Positions 3,341 to 33,950 of a DNA stretch of 64,000 nucleotides are shown piece by piece. The stretch comes from an uncultured Ruminococcus sp. (GTDB lineage: Bacteria > Bacillota > Clostridia > Oscillospirales > Acutalibacteraceae): assembly GCA_902762375.1 (NCBI GenBank), contig CACWNY010000027.1, forward strand, positions 11,400-75,399, given 5' to 3'. How positions within the stretch are numbered: position 1 is the first letter of the stretch; each line of letters opens with the position of its first letter. A program made the position numbers and the translations under genes. The notes beneath the pieces were generated by a model that had not been told where the DNA came from, did no database searches, and was given only the letters and a program-made list of their open reading frames with translations.

Positions 3341-3484
3341 CTGTGCGGTTGGAATGATTTTCTCATCGTATAGCTGTGACAATTAAAAGTTTTGTCCACT
3401 TTTTCAAAAGTGGTGGGGTCAAGGGGCAAAGCCCCTTGTGGGATTTTTAAGTTGACAGTAACTATCTGGCTTTCAACCGCACAG
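3341..3484 (+). repeat. MPE locus 2, internally deleted monomer with both terminal inverted repeats
   Basis: Left CTGTGCGGTTGGAA and right TTTCAACCGCACAG are inverted with 1 mismatch. A, B(CCAC/GTGG) and C are present. D and E are deleted at TTTTTAAG|TTGACAG. Starts 5 nt after the ABC ATPase stop. Confidence 0.88.
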
Positions 3485-13898: not shown

Positions 13899-15296
<1,398 letters not shown>

Positions 15297-15330
15297 TTGA
15301 CAAGACACTCCTAAAAATAGATAAAATTAA

Positions 15331-15366
15331 AAAAGCTGTTTCCTTTTTTGGAAACGGCTTTTTTGT
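15331..15366 (+). terminator. intrinsic terminator after gdhA
   Basis: GCTGTTTCC-TTTTTT-GGAAACGGC followed by TTTTTT. Confidence 0.8.
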
Positions 15367-15450
15367 CTTGCATAAAAGAATTTTTCATGGTAAAATAAAT
15401 ACAATCCATAAAATTTCTGTATAAAATAAATAGAAAGAAGTGGTGATGAA

Positions 15451-15693
15451 TTGAAAAAGCGTTTTCGGAAATTGCTGGCTACTTTAGGGATAGGAACTTG
15501 TGTGGCAACCAATATTAACGGTTGTGTGTACGGACCTCCTCCCATAACGGACGACGGACCGCCAAAGACAGTACAGCCATCTGAAAAGACCAATAATGAT
15601 GACAAAAATATTTTTTCCCCTGAAGATAATATTCCCGAAGATGTATACGGACCTCCGTCCTATTGGGGAAATCCTGATGAAGAAGAACAATAA
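15451..15693 (+). CDS. small lipoprotein-like protein with terminal VYGPP motifs (candidate radical-SAM substrate)
   Basis: TTG start. Signal-like MKKRFRKLLATLGIGTC, then NINGCVYGPPP, and a C-terminal DVYGPPSYWGNPDEEEQ. Paralog of 16379..16873. Confidence 0.55.
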   Translation: MKKRFRKLLATLGIGTCVATNINGCVYGPPPITDDGPPKTVQPSEKTNNDDKNIFSPEDNIPEDVYGPPSYWGNPDEEEQ

Positions 15694-15719
15694 TATTTGA
15701 AAATTACAGAATATAAAAA

Positions 15720-15941
15720 TTTCCACCTGAGCAGTTGGCATTATTCTAAAGTGCATAATTATAGAAAAGCAACCTGTAGCTATGACAATTAAAAGTTTTG
15801 TCCACTTTTTCAAAAGTGGTGGGGTCAAGGGGCAAAGCCCCTTTTGGGATTTTTAAGGGCAAAGCCCTTAAACTCCCAAAAATCAAATCAAAATTTGCAT
15901 ATGCAAATTTTGACAATAATTACTTGCGTTTCAACCACTCA
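15720..15941 (+). repeat. MPE locus 7, full monomer
   Basis: Left TTTCCACCTGAGCAGTTGG, a 40-nt spacer, A-B-C-D-E, then right TTTCAACCACTCA. Lies between the 80-aa VYGPP gene and the 130-aa ORF. Confidence 0.9.
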
Positions 15942-15968
15942 TTTTAAAAATTTCAGGAGGAATTTGCT

Positions 15969-16361
15969 ATGCCACAACAAAGGCAATATTTTCGTGTAAT
16001 CGGAAAATACGACAAAATAATTTCTTTAGACGAAATATGGAAAATGCCTGCAACGATACATTTTCTTGACAGAGAAGACCGTCTTAAAACTGCCAAATCA
16101 TGCTTGGTAAAGAATGATGCTATTATGACGACAGTAGTTGTGGACAGACAGCACGAAGACGGTTATGAATTACACAGCATTACCAAAAGTGGTATTGTAT
16201 TTATTATGAATAAAGAAAAATATGAAAACGGAGAACCAAGTTTAATCACAATCTTAATTGCACGACCTACACAGCTTGAGAGATATAAACCTATTTATAT
16301 AGCTTCCGTATATACACGGCTTTTAGCAGATGACCATGAAGTTAGCGGACTGAATTTATAG
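15969..16361 (+). CDS. hypothetical protein
   Basis: 130-aa ORF with a strong RBS (CAGGAGG, 8 nt upstream). Its stop overlaps the alternative GTG start of the next ORF. No family recognised. Confidence 0.5.
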   Translation: MPQQRQYFRVIGKYDKIISLDEIWKMPATIHFLDREDRLKTAKSCLVKNDAIMTTVVVDRQHEDGYELHSITKSGIVFIMNKEKYENGEPSLITILIARPTQLERYKPIYIASVYTRLLADDHEVSGLNL

Positions 16362-16378
16362 TGAAAAGAGGTTATATT

Positions 16379-16873
16379 ATGAAAAAGAAAAGAAGATTTC
16401 AAATGGCAGTGGCAAGCATAGCATTAGCGACTTTTGGTATGAGTGGTTGTGAAGTAAACACGAATATGACAGTATATGGTCCCCCACCATCTGAAGTTAC
16501 TACACAGAGTGAAACAGCAAAAGCAACAGAACAACAGACACAAAATACAACTATCGCTACAGATAATGCGACAAGTCCGACAAATGCAACAAACACTACA
16601 ACTACCAATCCGCCTACCGAAATGGTTACCGAAGAACAATCGGAAGTGGAAACTATGACAGAAACTGTTACCGAAACCGTCACCAAATTTGTACCTGTAG
16701 AAGAAGAAACAGAAGAAAGCACACAAGAAGAACCCCCAACACAAACTATTACAGAAGAAGTTGCCACAGAACCGCCTACATATGAAGAAAATTCTACAGA
16801 AGATATGCTACCATTTGACCCTACTGAAAATATGCCCGTAGCTGTATATGGTCCACCATCATGGTTTGAATGA
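16379..16873 (+). CDS. Thr/Glu-rich lipoprotein with terminal VYGPP motifs (candidate radical-SAM substrate)
   Basis: ATG at 16379 after AAGAGG. MKKKRRFQMAVASIALATFGMSGC lipobox, then TVYGPPP, a T/E-rich spacer and a C-terminal AVYGPPSWFE. Ends 8 nt before the radical SAM gene. Confidence 0.6.
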   Translation: MKKKRRFQMAVASIALATFGMSGCEVNTNMTVYGPPPSEVTTQSETAKATEQQTQNTTIATDNATSPTNATNTTTTNPPTEMVTEEQSEVETMTETVTETVTKFVPVEEETEESTQEEPPTQTITEEVATEPPTYEENSTEDMLPFDPTENMPVAVYGPPSWFE

Positions 16874-16881
16874 GGTGAATT

Positions 16882-17949
16882 ATGTCTGAACAAATCAAAC
16901 TCAACCATCTGGAACAGTTACGGCAGTACAGACAGAAACTTCGCCGTGAACCTGTATTAAAATACTTATTTCTGGAACTGACATTGCGTTGCAATGAACA
17001 TTGTCGGCATTGTGGAAGCCGTTGTGGAGATGTCTGCACACAGGAAATGACCAGAAAGCAATATTTTACTTTTCTGGATAAAATCAAAGCAGATTTTCCA
17101 CAGTTACCCATGCTTTGTATTACAGGTGGAGAACCGCTGTTGCGTGAGGACTTTTTCGACATCATGGATTATGCCAACCGTCTGGGATTTGTATGGGGAA
17201 TGACAAGTAACGGTACACTGATTACTCCGCAGGTTGCCAAAAAACTGGAAGAAGTCGGTATGAAAACGATTTCAGTCAGTATTGACGGTTTAGAACAAAC
17301 ACATGACGATTTTCGCCAAAGTAAAGGCGGTTTTCGAAAAAGTGTTGAGGGAGTAAAAAATCTGTTGAAACACGATTTTAAATCTGTACAAGTAACTACA
17401 GTTGTTACCAAGAAAAATATTGGTGAACTGGAAGAATTGTTTTCTCTGATGTGTGACTTAGATGTAGATTCATGGCGTGTCATCAACATTGAACCTATCG
17501 GCAGAGCTTTGACTTTGGACGGTTATACGCTGGATAGGGTAGATTACCGTTATCTGTTCGGGTTTATCCGACAGAAACGCCGTGAAGGTTATCCTGTGAT
17601 GTACGGTTGTCAGCACTATCTTGGCATAGAATACGAAAGGGAAGTCCGTGACTGGTATTTTCTTTGCAATGCAGGAATTTATGTAGCGAGTGTTATGGCG
17701 AATGGAGATATCGGAGCGTGTCTGGATATCGAAAGACGCAGGGAAACCATACAAGGAAATATTTTCAAAGACGATTTCACAGAAGTATGGTACAATCGTT
17801 TTCAAATTTTTCGCAAACCGCTTGCCGACAGAAATCAGCAGTGTGCAGATTGTTCATCAAGAAATTTCTGTGAGGGTGGTGCTTATCATAGTTGGGATTA
17901 TGACAATAACAAACCTCTTGTTTGTTTCAAAGATATTTTATTTAAGTAG
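16882..17949 (+). CDS. radical SAM enzyme with C-terminal SPASM/twitch-like Cys cluster
   Basis: CNEHCRHC (CxxxCxxC), GGEPLL, and C-terminal CNAG...GDIGAC...CADCSSRNFCEGG. Confidence 0.85.
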   Translation: MSEQIKLNHLEQLRQYRQKLRREPVLKYLFLELTLRCNEHCRHCGSRCGDVCTQEMTRKQYFTFLDKIKADFPQLPMLCITGGEPLLREDFFDIMDYANRLGFVWGMTSNGTLITPQVAKKLEEVGMKTISVSIDGLEQTHDDFRQSKGGFRKSVEGVKNLLKHDFKSVQVTTVVTKKNIGELEELFSLMCDLDVDSWRVINIEPIGRALTLDGYTLDRVDYRYLFGFIRQKRREGYPVMYGCQHYLGIEYEREVRDWYFLCNAGIYVASVMANGDIGACLDIERRRETIQGNIFKDDFTEVWYNRFQIFRKPLADRNQQCADCSSRNFCEGGAYHSWDYDNNKPLVCFKDILFK

Positions 17950-17970
17950 AAAGTTTCCCCTCTAAAATAA

Positions 17971-18180
17971 TCCCACCTGAAACGGTGACAACCAAAAGTT
18001 TTCCAACTGTGCAGTTGAAAGTCAAATAGTTACTGTCAAAATTTGCTCACGCAAATTTTGTTTGAAATTTTGAGAAGTTTAAGGGCTTCGCCCTTAAAAA
18101 TCCCACAAGGGGCTTTGCCCCTTGACCCCACCACTTTTGAAAAAGTGGACAAAACTTTTAATTGTCATAGCTATCATAGC
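17971..18180 (-). repeat. MPE locus 8, monomer with duplicated terminus
   Basis: TCCCACCTGAAACGGTGA plus CCAACTGTGCAGTTGAAA termini, then E-D-C-B-A. The end is duplicated: GTCATAGCTATCATAGC. Confidence 0.88.
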
Positions 18181-18523
18181 TATACATGATAAAATTCACA
18201 TTTATAGGGAGATTTCCGAATATCTGAAAAAAGTGCAAATTTTAACTGTAAACATATTGAAAAAAAATAGTGATTATGATAAAATAGTGAATAAGCATAG
18301 TTGTATTTTCAGTATATAAATTGTTTGTTTATACAGTCAGATATTGTCGGTTTCAGCAATCATTTGCGATATCTGTAATTTTCATGACAAGCACTCACTT
18401 TCACTTCCCGATAGCAGAAATAACCGTAATCACCCTGAAATTGCGGGAATTTTTTGTATAGCGGAAAAACAGTATTTTCTAAAATATGACTGTGTAACAA
18501 TATTCTTTTAAGGAGGTTTTTAA

Positions 18524-21500
18524 GTGAGATTTCTGAAAAAAGGTTTAGCAGTAGTACTTGCCTCAATTATGTTGCAGAGTACGGTATGGACTTCTGTTTC
18601 AGCATTCAATACAGAAGTTTCGGAAGTTTCAGCAGGCACTTCATCTGTAGAGAGTGGTGTCAATCCTGTAAAGATAGTACTGGATAACACCAGTCTTTAT
18701 CTTTACGAAGGCGAAAGCGGTCAGATAGGAGCAACATTAAGTCCTGAAGATGCCACAGAAACAATTACATGGTCAACCAATAATACAAAGGTTGCTACTG
18801 TTGACGCAAACGGAAAAGTTTTTGGTGTCAGTAAAGGTACAGCAACCATTACCGCAAAAACAACCAACGGTCTTACGGCATCATGTACAGTGAATGTCAG
18901 CACTATGCCACAGGAAGTTTTTCTGGATAAGACATCTTTGACAATGGTAGTCAAAGAAAACTATCAGCTTATACCAAGTGTTTCTCCTGATGACGCTTAC
19001 GCTACTTATAACTGGTCATCAAGTGATGTCAGCACTGTGAAAGTAGACGAAAACGGTTTGCTGACAGCATTAAAAGTAGGTACAGCTACCATAGCGGTTA
19101 CCACTTCCAACGGTATCAGTACATTATGTACGGTAAAGGTAATTGCTCTTCCCACGAAAATCACGCTGGATAAGACCGAAGTTACCTTGCGTCCCGAAGA
19201 AACATTGACATTGAGAAAAAGTGTGACCCCGTCTAACGCAACAGCAGACTATGTGTGGAAAAGCAGTAACACTAAAGTGGCAACGGTTGACCAGACAGGT
19301 AAAGTGACAGGTGTAGCTTTGGGAGAAGCAGAAATCACAGTGACTTCCAGTAACGGAATTGTTGCCCAGTGTCATGTTGATGTCAAGAGATATCCTGATT
19401 CTATTGCTTTTGTTTATAAGAATGTGTCTATCTCTACCGATGCCCCCAACAATAAAGCAGACTTACAGACGATAATTTCTCCTGAAGATTCTTATACCAA
19501 GCTGGTATGGAAAAGCAGTGACACTAAAGTGGCAACTGTTGACCAGACAGGTAAGGTCACGGGAAGAAATGTAGGACAATGTACCGTTACCGTAACAACC
19601 GATAATGGTAAAAGTGATACCTGTACAGTAAATGTATCCAAAGAATCCGTTACGATTGATGATATTCCCAAAGATGAATCATTCCTTATGTATATCGGCA
19701 CAACAGAACAGTTTACCGCAACGGTATTACCCGAAGGTTCAACTTGTACATGGTCGAGCAATAATCCTGATGTTGTCAGCGTAGATGAAAACGGTTTGCT
19801 GACAGGTAAATCGTGGGGTGTTGCTATTATTACAGCCAGCATATCTGATAATGTGTCGGATTCCCGCATAGTGGTTTGTGGTGAAGAACCAAAATCCATT
19901 TACATGACGATTGACGGACAGAAAATTGCTGACGGTGCAACAATTTCGGTAGATGCACAGGATTATTTGATGATTGTTCCTGAACTGGAAACAGAATGGG
20001 CAGTTTCCAAAGTTGTATGGACCTATGAAAAAAATAATACAATTTCTTTTACCGTCAAAAAGGATACAAGTGTCGTTACCCTCAGAGGACTGAAGCCTGG
20101 TACTTGTAAACTCACAGTAACTACCGAAAACGGTAAAACAGCTCAGTGTACCATCAAAGTAGTAGCTGTCGTACAAAGTATTGACATTACCAATACCCCT
20201 CAACCTATCAAAATGAATGTGGGACAGAAGATAACACTCAATAAAAAAATAACACCTTCAGTTGCGGTTAGTAATTATACATGGAAAAGCAGTAATGAAG
20301 AAGTTGCTACTGTCAATGCAAGCGGTATGGTGACGGCAATGAAAGTCGGTGTTACCGAAATCAGCGTTACAGCTGATAATGGTGTCAGTGCATCTTGTGA
20401 AGTACAGGTTTGTCCGTTACCCGATGCGATTACGATTGTACCATCTAAGGTTTCGTTGTCACTCAACGAAGTAGCCACTGAAGGTCAGACAGTAAAGCCG
20501 TCTAATACACAGTTGTCTATTCGCTATACTCCTGAAAATGCGTATTCACCTACCTTAAAATGGGCAAGCAGTGACACTTCTGTTGTTGCCGTTAATTCTA
20601 CTACTTATGTGATAACCGCCAAAGATACAGGAAAAGCTGAAGTTACGGTTACCACATCAAACAGTAAAACAGCTACCTGTGAAGTAGAAGTTACAGCAAA
20701 ACCGTCATCGGTTCGTTTTGCAGAAAGTCCCAGCAAATACTGGATAAGAGTGGGTGAAAAAGCAACTCTTACACCTATACCTACTCCTGCACATGCCATT
20801 ACCAGCTACAAATGGTCAAGCAGTACTCCCGAAGTAGCAACAATAGATGAGAACAGTGGTTTGATTACCGCTAAGAAATTCGGAGAAACTACTATCACTG
20901 TAGAAACAGATAACGGTAAAAAAGCAACATTCAAACTCAAGGTTTACGCAAAACCGACAAAAGCCTATTTTGAACAGTCAGCAATGTCTATGTATGTTAC
21001 ACAGGAATTTACCTTTAAACCATTGTTAAGTCCTGAAAATTCTATTACAAGCGGTTATGAATGGGAAAGTTCAGATACATCAGTTGCCACAGTTGACAAA
21101 AACGGAAAGGTAATTGCTAAGAAAATCGGTAATACCGTTATCAGTGCAACCAACGACCTCGGACAATCCGCAAAATGTATTATTACGGTTTATCCTGTTC
21201 CTGAAACAGTAACGCTGAACCAGACAAGTGCTGATATCAATGTTTATAAGACAGTCACGCTTGTACCGTCCATTACGCCTGAAAATGCGTTGACAGCTTA
21301 CACATGGAAAAGCAGTGACACATCTATTGCTACCGTTGACGAAAACGGTAAAGTTAAAGGTGTAGCCGTAGGAACAGCTACCGTCACAGTCAGCACATCA
21401 AACAATAAGACAGCCACTTGTAAAATTAATGTCAAGAAAGCACCAACGAATGTATCATTTGAAAAAACTACTTTGAAACTCGGTGAAGGACAAACTTCTG

Positions 21501-22654
21501 TATTGACACCGATACTTACCCCAAGCAATGCCTATACAAAGTATTCATGGACAAGTAGTGACACAACCGTTGCTACAGTCAATTCACAAGGCAAAGTTGC
21601 GGCAAAGAAAGCAGGTAAATCCGTCATTACCGTAGAAACTCTCAACGGTAAAACAGCTACCTGTACTGTTACTGTAAGTAAAGGACCATCAAGCGTAGCT
21701 ATTGATAAAACAACAGTACAGATGGGTGTAGGCAGAACCTATCAGCTTAATGCTTCTATTACGCCCAGTAATGCTGTTACTTATTGTAGTTGGAGTACCA
21801 GTAAGAAATCGATTGCCACAGTCAGCGGTAAAGGTCTTGTTACCGCAAAAGGTGTTGGTACAGCTGTAATTACCGTAAAGACATCGAATGGTAAGACAGC
21901 AGAATGTAAAGTTACTGTAAAAGCAGCACCAACAGAAATCACTTTGAATAAAACCGCACTGGATTTAGGTCTGGGACAGACTTATACCTTGCAGACAGCA
22001 TTGACCCCTACTAATGCTTATGTAATGAACACATGGAGCAGTAGTAACAGTAATATTGTTTCGGTAAATTCTGTAGGAAAGATTGCCGCAAAGAGTGTCG
22101 GAAAGGCTACCATTACGGTAAAAACCTATAACGGTCTTACTGCACAGTGTGTTGTTACTGTAAAGACAGCTCCTGAAAGTGTTGCGATTAACAAGACTGC
22201 CATCAATATTGCGGTAGGACAAGATGTCACATTGACTTCATCTCTTACACCTTCAGACGCATACACTTATTGTAGCTGGAGTAGCAGTGATAAGAATATT
22301 GCCACTGTTTCTTCAAGCGGTAAGGTTACAGGTGTAAAAGTCGGTACAGCGGTCATCACCGTAAAGACTTCCAACGGAAAAACCGCTACTTGTAAAGTGA
22401 CTGTCAAAAAAGCTCCCACTGCGATTGCTTTGAGTAAAACAGCAGTTACCCTCAATGTTGGAGAAAAAACAACACTCACTAAAACTTTAACACCATCAAA
22501 CGCATTTTCCACTTATAAATGGAAAAGCAGTAACACACTCGTTGCCACAGTAAACAGTAACGGTGAAATAACTGCCAAAGGAAAAGGTACAGCGACTATC
22601 ACAGTAACTACTTTCAACGGACAGAAAGCTACTTGTAAAGTCACTGTAAAATAA
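18524..22654 (+). CDS. secreted protein with 16 tandem Big_2 (bacterial Ig-like) domains
   Basis: GTG start after AAGGAGG. Signal peptide MRFLKKGLAVVLASIMLQSTVWTSVSA. I counted 16 repeats of the ...W.SS....ATVD..G.VT....G.A.ITV.T.NG.TA.C.V.V pattern. Confidence 0.85.
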   Translation: MRFLKKGLAVVLASIMLQSTVWTSVSAFNTEVSEVSAGTSSVESGVNPVKIVLDNTSLYLYEGESGQIGATLSPEDATETITWSTNNTKVATVDANGKVFGVSKGTATITAKTTNGLTASCTVNVSTMPQEVFLDKTSLTMVVKENYQLIPSVSPDDAYATYNWSSSDVSTVKVDENGLLTALKVGTATIAVTTSNGISTLCTVKVIALPTKITLDKTEVTLRPEETLTLRKSVTPSNATADYVWKSSNTKVATVDQTGKVTGVALGEAEITVTSSNGIVAQCHVDVKRYPDSIAFVYKNVSISTDAPNNKADLQTIISPEDSYTKLVWKSSDTKVATVDQTGKVTGRNVGQCTVTVTTDNGKSDTCTVNVSKESVTIDDIPKDESFLMYIGTTEQFTATVLPEGSTCTWSSNNPDVVSVDENGLLTGKSWGVAIITASISDNVSDSRIVVCGEEPKSIYMTIDGQKIADGATISVDAQDYLMIVPELETEWAVSKVVWTYEKNNTISFTVKKDTSVVTLRGLKPGTCKLTVTTENGKTAQCTIKVVAVVQSIDITNTPQPIKMNVGQKITLNKKITPSVAVSNYTWKSSNEEVATVNASGMVTAMKVGVTEISVTADNGVSASCEVQVCPLPDAITIVPSKVSLSLNEVATEGQTVKPSNTQLSIRYTPENAYSPTLKWASSDTSVVAVNSTTYVITAKDTGKAEVTVTTSNSKTATCEVEVTAKPSSVRFAESPSKYWIRVGEKATLTPIPTPAHAITSYKWSSSTPEVATIDENSGLITAKKFGETTITVETDNGKKATFKLKVYAKPTKAYFEQSAMSMYVTQEFTFKPLLSPENSITSGYEWESSDTSVATVDKNGKVIAKKIGNTVISATNDLGQSAKCIITVYPVPETVTLNQTSADINVYKTVTLVPSITPENALTAYTWKSSDTSIATVDENGKVKGVAVGTATVTVSTSNNKTATCKINVKKAPTNVSFEKTTLKLGEGQTSVLTPILTPSNAYTKYSWTSSDTTVATVNSQGKVAAKKAGKSVITVETLNGKTATCTVTVSKGPSSVAIDKTTVQMGVGRTYQLNASITPSNAVTYCSWSTSKKSIATVSGKGLVTAKGVGTAVITVKTSNGKTAECKVTVKAAPTEITLNKTALDLGLGQTYTLQTALTPTNAYVMNTWSSSNSNIVSVNSVGKIAAKSVGKATITVKTYNGLTAQCVVTVKTAPESVAINKTAINIAVGQDVTLTSSLTPSDAYTYCSWSSSDKNIATVSSSGKVTGVKVGTAVITVKTSNGKTATCKVTVKKAPTAIALSKTAVTLNVGEKTTLTKTLTPSNAFSTYKWKSSNTLVATVNSNGEITAKGKGTATITVTTFNGQKATCKVTVK

Positions 22655-33804: not shown

Positions 33805-33950
33805 AGCTATGAAAATTAAAAGTTTTGTCCACTTTTTCAAAAGTGGTGGGGTCAAGGGGCAAAGCCCCTTGTGGGATTTTAAAGGGCGAAGCCCTTTAAT
33901 GGATAAAAACTCAAAACAAAATCTGCGTAAGCAGATTTTGACAATCATTT
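33805..33950 (+). repeat. MPE locus 15, A-B-C-D-E
   Basis: AGCTATGAAAATTAAAAGTTTTGTCCAC.., with E as CAAAATCTGCGTAAGCAGATTTTG. Lies between the convergent spoIID-like and queF genes. Confidence 0.9.

Follow-up and report, generated by a model that had tools for sequence, protein, structure and literature searches.

A radical SAM/SPASM enzyme gene paired with exported Tyr-Gly-Pro-Pro motif proteins: a probable two-gene maturation module in gut and rumen Clostridia

In a 64,000-nucleotide (nt) stretch of DNA from an uncultured Ruminococcus sp., hereafter called the window, we analysed a locus in which two genes for small signal-bearing proteins of 80 and 164 amino acids (aa) precede a gene for a 355-aa radical S-adenosylmethionine (rSAM) enzyme with a SPASM domain. 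Both small proteins carry the motif Val-Tyr-Gly-Pro-Pro (VYGPP) towards each end, and proteins of this kind are referred to below as YGPP proteins or partners. The original prediction, made from the letters of this locus, had proposed that the enzyme is a maturase with the two YGPP proteins as its substrates. Its gene positions, the 8-nt gap between the 164-aa gene and the enzyme gene and the VYGPP cores at both ends of both proteins were all recovered in our analysis (Table 1).

The N-terminal motifs, C-V-Y-G-P-P-P in the 80-aa protein and T-V-Y-G-P-P-P in the 164-aa protein, lie just past the signal peptide, and the C-terminal ones read VYGPPSYW and VYGPPSWFE. As had been described, BLASTP matches the two proteins to each other at either end (E 9e-7 and 3e-6), with unrelated spacers in between. 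Lipoprotein-type signals had been assigned to both proteins. In the 164-aa protein the signal is a canonical lipobox (FGMSGC, Cys24), and a Thr/Glu-rich spacer separates its two terminal motifs. For the 80-aa protein, the lipobox-like cysteine typical of the family is C25 (NINGC, right before VYGPP) rather than C17. A counterpart of the 80-aa protein in a near-identical metagenome-assembled genome (MAG) is annotated as 'hypothetical' (MBQ7522090.1), and the protein fits the YGPP profile family (P0186). When all open reading frames (ORFs) of at least 40 aa in the six frames of the window were considered, YGPP was found in the 80-aa and 164-aa ORFs only.

The 355-aa protein contains the SAM-cluster motif C37-x3-C41-x2-C44 (CNEHCRHC) and auxiliary-cluster cysteines arranged as C262-x17-C280 and C321-x2-C324-x5-C330. 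Both regions had been noted before, and Pfam confirmed a Radical_SAM domain (PF04055, 79.9 bits against a gathering threshold of 29.5) and a SPASM domain (PF13186, 30 bits against a cutoff of 21.5). Eleven cysteines are invariant across 15 homologs, and the seven in the SPASM half are C243, C262, C280, C321, C324, C330 and C348. The enzyme has no signal peptide. In agreement with the earlier reading, Pfam and an AlphaFold2 (AF2) model showed no N-terminal domain matching a RiPP recognition element (RRE; RiPP, a peptide made on ribosomes and then modified post-translationally) in size, and the approximately 30 residues ahead of the SAM motif were modelled as one long N-terminal helix (H3-22). 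With a predicted template modelling score (pTM) of 0.79, the AF2 model had as its nearest structures in a Foldseek search of the PDB SkfB and SuiB, that is, generic rSAM/SPASM RiPP maturases. Relatives of the enzyme number in the thousands, and a 50%-representative search gave 366 clusters at E <= 1e-30. The closest, at 60-85% identity, are all annotated only as 'radical SAM protein' and belong to Clostridia of the rumen and gut (Ruminococcus, Oscillospiraceae, Lachnospiraceae, Butyrivibrio).

Table 1. Positions of the enzyme gene, its two partner genes, their motifs and the surrounding elements in the window
Feature	Position (nt)	Strand	Remark
80-aa YGPP-motif precursor-like ORF, signal peptide	15451..15693	+	TTG start
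VYGPP cores of the 80-aa protein	15526-15540 (aa 26-30); 15643-15657 (aa 65-69)	+	
Motif unit 1 of the 80-aa protein, N-I-N-G-C-V-Y-G-P-P-P	15496..15549	+	overlaps lipobox
Motif unit 2 of the 80-aa protein, F-S-P-E-D-N-I-P-E-D-V-Y-G-P-P-S-Y-W	15613..15666	+	fits family consensus
164-aa YGPP-motif lipoprotein-like precursor	16379..16873	+	ATG start, AAGAGG ribosome-binding site
VYGPP cores of the 164-aa protein	16472-16486 (aa 32-36); 16844-16858 (aa 156-160)	+	
Motif unit 1 of the 164-aa protein, N-T-N-M-T-V-Y-G-P-P-P	16442..16495	+	
Motif unit 2 of the 164-aa protein, F-D-P-T-E-N-M-P-V-A-V-Y-G-P-P-S-W-F-E	16814..16867	+	kept in locus L001, where the spacer differs
355-aa radical SAM/SPASM enzyme, putative maturase	16882..17949	+	ATG 8 nt past the stop of the 164-aa gene
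130-aa ORF (orf130)	15969..16361	+	strong AGGAGG ribosome-binding site; between both YGPP genes
Left copy of dispersed multi-hairpin repeat ('MPE')	15777..15883	+	context, outside the system
Right, inverted repeat copy, 3' of the rSAM gene	18067..18173	-	context, outside the system
Dispersed repeat, all copies	~3370-3470; 15777-15915; 18035-18173; 33805-33940	+; +; -; +	

The pairing of the two kinds of genes was followed across genomes in both directions. With the enzyme as the starting point, 80 genome loci were found, 76 of them with enough upstream DNA, and their ORFs were scanned. In 73 of the 76, a YGPP ORF on the rSAM strand runs up to the start of the rSAM gene or stops shortly ahead of it, and 65 of these 73 have at least two motifs. 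In two of the exceptions, L053 and L074, a small YGPP lipoprotein is encoded downstream of the rSAM gene instead. In L009 (3685-3987) the YGPP partner upstream of an intact rSAM gene is broken by a single in-frame TAG/TGA-type stop, located after the signal peptide but before the first motif (…PPGEIP*PVYGPPP…); the gene may be a pseudogene or be recoded, or the stop may be an error of sequencing. Tandem paralogous partners like those of the window are common (e.g. L034, L036, L050, L052). All-versus-all clustering of the neighbourhood ORFs gave two conserved families only, the enzyme (80/80) and the YGPP proteins. The next real family was present in 10/80 loci, and the other recurrent 'families' were antisense or alternate-frame ORFs inside the rSAM gene. 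No protease, transporter, RRE protein, sulfatase or heme/cofactor gene was conserved in the neighbourhoods of the 80 loci.

For the reverse survey, a profile was built from the full-length partner alignment and not from the enzyme. It retrieved at least 983 YGPP proteins, of which the named ones are all 'hypothetical' save one 'DUF805 domain-containing protein'. Six of six motif-profile picks, chosen for their long contigs, had an rSAM/SPASM gene immediately after the YGPP gene. The co-occurrence that would be expected of a maturase and its signal-bearing substrates was thus found from either side, and in occasional cases enzyme and motif are joined in one protein. In P0250 the rSAM part is followed by …DNMPAVIYGPPEMLEE… and a zinc ribbon, and in P0254 by a zinc ribbon and then …FQTLYGPPPMNY…; the tails of the two have IYGPPEM or LYGPPPM. 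P0246 has VYGxxTP three times at its N terminus (VVYGCATP, VRVYGVATPDFF, IEVYGTPSSSFY) ahead of the rSAM part. Read from their sequences, these fusions offer Rosetta-stone support for what would be a direct functional link between enzyme and motif.

The motif itself was defined from 227 instances in 72 unique partners. Its unit of about 20 residues has the 18-residue extended consensus [FY]-[DE]-P-x-x-N-x-[PN]-x-x-[VLIA]-Y-G-P-P-[ESP]-[WYM]-F, and a 25-residue example is FDPTENMPVAVYGPPSWFE. Tyr and Gly are 100% conserved (227/227). The residue before the Tyr is Val in 64-72% of the instances and otherwise Leu, Ala or Ile, and Asn is frequent at position -6. Usually the first unit overlaps the lipobox (…N-M-N-G-C-V-Y-G-P-P…), and the Asn at -6 and the [NP] at -4 are kept even inside it. 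All four motifs of the window match the consensus. Long ORFs from related loci contain YGPP just 9 times in 168,565 aa; at this background rate the 244 aa of both small proteins together should hold about 0.013 copies, and they hold 4. Since the spacers are of low complexity and rich in Thr, Glu, Asp and Pro, one might suppose that YGPP arose fortuitously in proline- and acid-rich linkers. This explanation is refuted by the count, by an 18-residue consensus that is kept while the spacers vary and by the near-universal co-occurrence with the enzyme, and we give it practically no weight.

The partners are 64-339 aa long, acidic, Thr/Ser/Pro-rich and nearly free of Cys, with 1-7 motifs and unconserved spacers. 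The motif is carried by lipoproteins, by DUF805 membrane proteins and by dockerin-bearing secreted proteins of Ruminococcus flavefaciens. In P0143 and P0137 a DUF805 membrane domain is followed by 6-8 perfect units, and the enzymes encoded beside them share 52-53% identity with that of the window. Judged by eye with the positive-inside rule, the motif tail of these proteins should face outward, because they have a K/R-rich N terminus, an RRLRDGGKS loop and three hydrophobic segments. Several partners from Ruminococcus flavefaciens have a type I dockerin placed between their motifs (Pfam PF00404, E 1e-9 to 4e-6), which would make these putatively modified proteins parts of the cellulosome. Loci of the Ruminococcus flavefaciens type (L046-L079; e.g. 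L052 626-3994, L079 3007-3996) contain up to four tandem YGPP proteins. The surface-tethered lipoprotein substrate that had been suggested therefore holds as one of three carriers only, next to the DUF805 anchor and the dockerin. Because the enzyme gene follows the motif on all three display devices, the association tracks the motif and not the carrier.

The size of the smallest partners, such as the 80-aa protein, and the repeated core-like motifs beside an rSAM/SPASM enzyme resemble multi-core precursors. In a conventional RiPP cluster, leader-core precursors would have their motif peptides cut out and released as diffusible products. We regard this as quite improbable for the YGPP proteins, whose N termini are signal peptides or lipoboxes and not leaders, and which lack a conserved protease, transporter or RRE in the 80 loci. 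Their size of up to about 340 aa and their dockerin or DUF805 domains point instead to anchored proteins.

Profile searches gave no NCBIfam or Pfam match for the 80-aa, 164-aa and 130-aa proteins, and hits at E up to 10 were low-complexity noise. The best NCBIfam model for the enzyme was the hypothetical equivalog TIGR04133, 'rSAM_w_lipo', at 294.5 bits against a cutoff of 425, with residues 9-350 aligned to positions 6-346 of the 350 in the model. The same model was best for 15/15 members of the clade that were tested, all under the cutoff, at about E-88 (best 3.2e-89) against E-44 to E-50 for the next model. The heme b synthase AhbD came second with 151 bits and NirJ-type models scored down to 125 bits, far from their cutoffs of 500-650. 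TIGR03942, the anaerobic sulfatase maturase, was absent among the best 25 family matches of the enzyme, and no C/S-x-P-x-R sulfatase motif was found in the 80-aa or 164-aa protein. A family with a known but unrelated substrate, which would have spoken against the maturase idea, was thus not reached: the best model is an uncharacterised one, and sulfatase, heme and cofactor families are far under their cutoffs.

The AhbD and NirJ-type matches could also be taken to indicate that the enzyme makes a heme-type or other cofactor and that the YGPP lipoprotein is not a substrate but an unmodified receptor, scaffold or regulator. However, such low scores are generic among SPASM enzymes, and true TIGR04133 enzymes (566-573 bits) give the same AhbD and NirJ-type matches. 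No heme or cofactor genes are conserved nearby in the 80 loci. In addition, the association tracks a 5-residue motif over three carrier architectures and two phyla, with some fusions, which is the behaviour of a substrate motif. A role in cofactor synthesis consequently seems improbable to us. As a separate observation on the enzyme family, the relatives P0255, P0257, P0262 and P0277 (41-47% identity) are fused to a C-terminal domain of about 200 aa with a JAB/MPN-like H-x-H-P…S-x-x-D signature, which suggests a sub-clade that may couple radical SAM chemistry to a metalloprotease/deubiquitinase-like activity.

Clostridial families that pair a lipoprotein-like precursor of about 80 aa with a dedicated rSAM enzyme had been brought up in the original prediction. 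Such a system exists in the pair of TIGR04133 and TIGR04134, the latter being 'lipo_with_rSAM' or 'radical SAM-associated putative lipoprotein', but in the loci retrieved and by the source names it belongs to Bacteroidota (Alistipes) and is not clostridial. Nor do the window proteins belong to it by the curated models, neither cutoff being reached, although TIGR04133 remains the best model for the enzyme. True TIGR04133 members were reached via P0299 (457 bits) and then through named proteins, mostly from Alistipes, which have the JGI label 'rSAM/lipoprotein system'; their contexts were read in the named-protein loci and in 80 metagenome loci. A lipoprotein gene with an LLGFSTAC lipobox ends 4-12 nt before the TIGR04133 enzyme gene. 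These partners have a single conserved site, [RP]-[IV]-x-[VL]-M-Y-G-[VT]-[RP]-x-P, with M-Y-G invariant in 26 unique partners, and one partner reads MYGPPVYFED, essentially the Firmicutes motif. A second partner type has C…M-Y-G-T-P-Y-A-E-Y and then a CarboxypepD_reg-like domain, and only this type reached the TIGR04134 cutoff of 39.8 bits (partner in L084, 80 bits). Neither window protein matched TIGR04134 at E up to 10, and the Alistipes-type partner of a true TIGR04133 enzyme did not match it either. Partners were present in about 72 of 73 Bacteroidota loci when read by eye from the ORFs; a search with the regular expression YG.P and a strict lipobox expression had under-counted them.

The window locus and the TIGR04133/TIGR04134 system have in common the best full-length model for the enzyme, a small lipoprotein gene that ends a few nt before the rSAM/SPASM gene, and partners with hydrophobic-Y-G-x-[PR]-P soon past the lipobox, the last being a feature derived here and not part of the curated definition. 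They differ in that the window enzyme stays under the cutoff and is 37% identical to P0299, the sole above-cutoff member aligned. Furthermore, the window clade has up to 7 copies of a longer unit (FDPxxN...VYGPPEWF) against a single MYG site, uses DUF805 and dockerin as alternative carriers, and occurs in rumen and gut Clostridia as opposed to Bacteroidota. By sequence, the window system is a sister clade of the curated TIGR04133 system and lies outside both curated models. Since Bacteroidota partners have M-Y-G and Firmicutes partners V-Y-G-P-P, the invariant across the phyla is Y-G, and the shared core is Tyr-Gly with a hydrophobic residue before it and a Pro within three residues after it. 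One contig labelled 'uncultured Alistipes sp.' (L080) contains a Firmicutes-type enzyme (61% identity) with a dockerin-type YGPP partner; it is probably mis-binned, and horizontal transfer is less likely. TIGRFAMs/NCBIfam already list the combination of an rSAM/SPASM enzyme and a neighbouring lipoprotein, with its function uncharacterised, and a full-text literature search returned no paper on the TIGR04133/TIGR04134 pair. Searches on YGPP with radical SAM, on splicease with lipoprotein and on SPASM with lipoprotein in Ruminococcus also gave nothing relevant. The clade has a distinct multi-copy motif, new carriers and fusions, and Y-G emerges as the core in common with the Bacteroidota system and, by motif, with the spliceases.

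Other features of the locus were assigned to its context. The original prediction had correctly placed a 130-aa ORF and a copy of the MPE repeat between the two precursor-like genes. No homologs of orf130 were found among 87 loci examined, and its only counterpart is MBQ7522089.1 in the near-identical Clostridia MAG. Because of this distribution and the lack of a family match, orf130 was rejected as a part of the module and is an insertion, specific to the lineage, that separates two tandem partner genes. The intergenic repeat is about 110-150 nt long, has 3-4 short hairpins, among them terminator-like stems, and the core …GTCCACTTTTTCAAAAGTGGTGGGGTCAAGGGGCAAAGCCCCTT…AAGGGCGAAGCCCTT…AAAATTTGCGTAAGCAAATTTT, and is dispersed in four copies over the window. 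Two of the copies (15777-15883 and 18067-18173) form a 107-nt inverted repeat, 95% complementary, that flanks orf130, the 164-aa gene and the rSAM gene. The left copy has a terminator-like hairpin at 15825-15847, just 3' of the 80-aa gene. The cassette was considered as a mobile unit between these inverted repeats; the same element occurs twice more in unrelated places of the window, and for this reason the bracketing copies were taken as dispersed intergenic repeats. No Rfam match to the repeat was obtained for the stretch 15000-19000, which holds two copies. Neighbouring genes in the window encode lactate dehydrogenase, glutamate dehydrogenase and a large immunoglobulin (Ig)-repeat protein. 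The last (18524-22654, + strand) lies directly 3' of the cassette and is a secreted protein of 1376 aa with about 15 tandem repeats of about 90 aa that resemble Ig-like (Big_2-type) domains; it is not conserved beside the module in other loci.

Based on the pairing, the motif and its conservation, and the fusions, we propose with a probability of roughly 0.78 that enzyme and partners form a two-gene maturation module in which the enzyme would modify the Y-G motif of the neighbouring exported proteins. The maturase reading of the original prediction held up in all computational checks made here. We infer that the motif is the substrate and that it is modified before export. The enzyme has no signal peptide and needs SAM, a reductant and three Fe-S clusters, and must therefore act in the cytoplasm. 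The partners, predicted to be disordered, have Sec or lipoprotein signals, so that their modification is expected before export. The enzyme would recognise each unit of about 20 residues in the still-unfolded 164-aa and 80-aa precursors and would apply 5'-deoxyadenosyl-radical chemistry at the invariant Tyr-Gly core. With neither RRE nor leader, the determinant of recognition is probably the unit as such (FDPxxN…VYGPP). The precursor would then be exported by its own signal peptide or lipobox, and the modified protein, disordered and acidic, would stay anchored at the cell surface. Such a route would require neither a leader peptide nor an RRE, protease or transporter. A precedent is the anaerobic sulfatase maturase anSME, an rSAM/SPASM enzyme without an RRE that acts in the cytoplasm, before export, on a short motif in a full-length signal-bearing protein. 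The window differs from anSME (TIGR03942) in its motif, which for anSME is C/S-x-P-x-R and is converted to formylglycine, and in that no sulfatase gene is conserved nearby in the 80 loci.

As for the chemistry, splicing is ranked first because X-Y-G is the target site of the spliceases. These enzymes excise a tyramine equivalent (C8H9NO, -135.06 Da) at X-Y-G and join the flanking carbonyls, and the product, an alpha-keto-beta-amino amide, is a pharmacophore against serine and cysteine proteases (PMC11414181, PMC11626197, PMC9811515, PMC10849128, PMC11002830). The native sites are MYG or LYG, with many residues tolerated at X (PMC10849128, PMC9811515). Spliceases act independently of a leader on tags of about 11-25 residues inside whole proteins and came to light in searches for YG-rich ORFs beside rSAM-SPASM genes (PMC11414181, PMC11626197, PMC9811515, PMC10849128). 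The known ones are activated by a Y protein or by a leader helix (PMC11414181), and the PlpX family corresponds to IPR026482 (PMC11002830). PlpX and PcpX work with a Y protein, and the systems of RhaX, RcsX and RasX are binary. For PcpX and RhaX, the Tyr C-beta is reported to be placed near the 5'-C of SAM, and 27 spliceases have been confirmed by experiment. The window is similar to these systems in that it has four VYG sites in proteins encoded beside an rSAM-SPASM gene and several sites per precursor; it is different in having no Nif11/NHLP leader, no Y protein, and substrates with Sec or lipoprotein signals. Scott et al. 2022 are said to have classified the splicease types, and related clades may already be listed there. 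By analogy, excision of a tyramine equivalent at X-Y-G would leave one alpha-keto-beta-amino amide (keto-beta-Val) per motif, and these sites could be displayed on the surface as an electrophilic warhead that inhibits serine or cysteine proteases. We hold splicing to be the most likely chemistry, though at somewhat less than even odds.

Several points weigh against the module or against splicing within it. The case is built wholly on comparative genomics, from which the modification is deduced. The fusion proteins stem from a metagenome-derived library, where assembly or gene-calling errors are possible, and in an AF2 model of the natural fusion P0250 the motif tail had a predicted local distance difference test (pLDDT) score of 31-45 and no docking signal. 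An above-cutoff TIGR04133 clade (P0299, L086) is found among Cys/Asp-rich peptides without YG, so substrate use in the enzyme lineage is not uniform. In L086 (1989-4584; enzyme 464 bits) there are at least seven small Cys/Asp-rich ORFs with a (V)SEL(V/L)FL leader-like segment, two further rSAM genes and no YG lipoprotein, and by its sequence this locus resembles a conventional RiPP cluster with several precursors, within the TIGR04133 hidden Markov model (HMM) family. On TIGR04103, which we take to be the PlpX-type model and a proxy for IPR026482, the window enzyme scored 114.7 bits against a cutoff of 725. No characterised maturase family was reached, and the scores for MftC (125.5 bits, cutoff 265) and WgkB (121.7 bits, cutoff 650) were about equal to that for TIGR04103; as the three score alike, the sequence does not single out splicing. 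A counterpart of the Y protein or of the leader helix was not found, there being no third conserved gene in the 80 loci, though the FDPxxN segment or the signal peptide might take its place. Finally, the window clade has an invariant Pro-Pro past Y-G, which is outside the splicease rule.

These last points bear on the next most likely chemistry, in which the same enzyme and substrates would be paired but a Tyr-centred C-C or C-O cross-link would form within the motif. After hydrogen abstraction, the ring or the C-beta of the Tyr would be bonded to a residue close by, for example in a cyclophane of the triceptide kind that spans the three residues Y-G-P, or in a bond akin to the Trp-Lys link made by WgkB in W-G-K. 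Each motif would thereby be rigidified and the surface protein made resistant to proteases. The mycofactocin maturase MftC acts at Val-Tyr in the C terminus of MftA and the tryglysin maturase WgkB at an aromatic-Gly-X site, and the YGPP motif is likewise an aromatic-Gly-X followed by an invariant Pro-Pro, which is easier to explain if the Pro is a member of a ring or shapes it. MftC and WgkB are SPASM rSAM enzymes, as is the window enzyme, and both models equal or exceed the PlpX-type model on it. In the same direction point the cyclophane-forming YhhB among the matches of a related enzyme, and SkfB and SuiB, the nearest solved folds, which are cross-linking RiPP maturases. Against a cross-link, the MftC and WgkB scores are far under their cutoffs. 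Moreover, in Bacteroidota the residues past Y-G vary (V-R-P-P, V-P-F-P, T-P-Y-A) and Met precedes it, so that only Y-G is fixed across the lineage. As systems, MftC and WgkB differ from the window in that their substrates are small cytoplasmic or secreted peptides, handled by RRE/PqqD-like partners or quorum-sensing operons, and not surface proteins with repeats. The predicted structure and the fold search do not separate the two chemistries. We consider a cross-link possible but doubtful, and keep splicing as the tentative first choice.

If the module acts as proposed, it would be a rare case in which radical SAM chemistry is directed at whole exported cell-surface proteins, in place of small peptides, it would offer a defined tag of about 20 residues for such chemistry, and it would give a function to the curated 'hypothetical equivalog' pair TIGR04133/TIGR04134. 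The module is widespread, with its gene pairing found again in hundreds of gut and rumen bacteria, and the Bacteroidota sister system includes sequence clusters of more than 1,000-2,000 members in human-gut metagenomes. If the chemistry is splicing, beta-amino-acid/ketoamide protein modification would reach anaerobes that dominate in gut and rumen, as well as components of the cellulosome, with the shielding of the surface from proteases as a suggested role. In its broadest and more speculative form, which we think unlikely but worth stating, the TIGR04133-like enzymes of both the Bacteroidota MYG and the Firmicutes VYGPP clades would make up a large, as yet unrecognised branch of tyramine spliceases that need no leader, work on exported proteins at full length and coat the cell surface with arrays of alpha-keto-beta-amino-amide warheads. 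These arrays would be anchored by a lipid, by the DUF805 membrane domain or, in Ruminococcus flavefaciens, by the dockerin on the cellulosome. They would inhibit serine and cysteine proteases of the host, the diet or competitors, as a post-translational analogue of dockerin-borne serpins.

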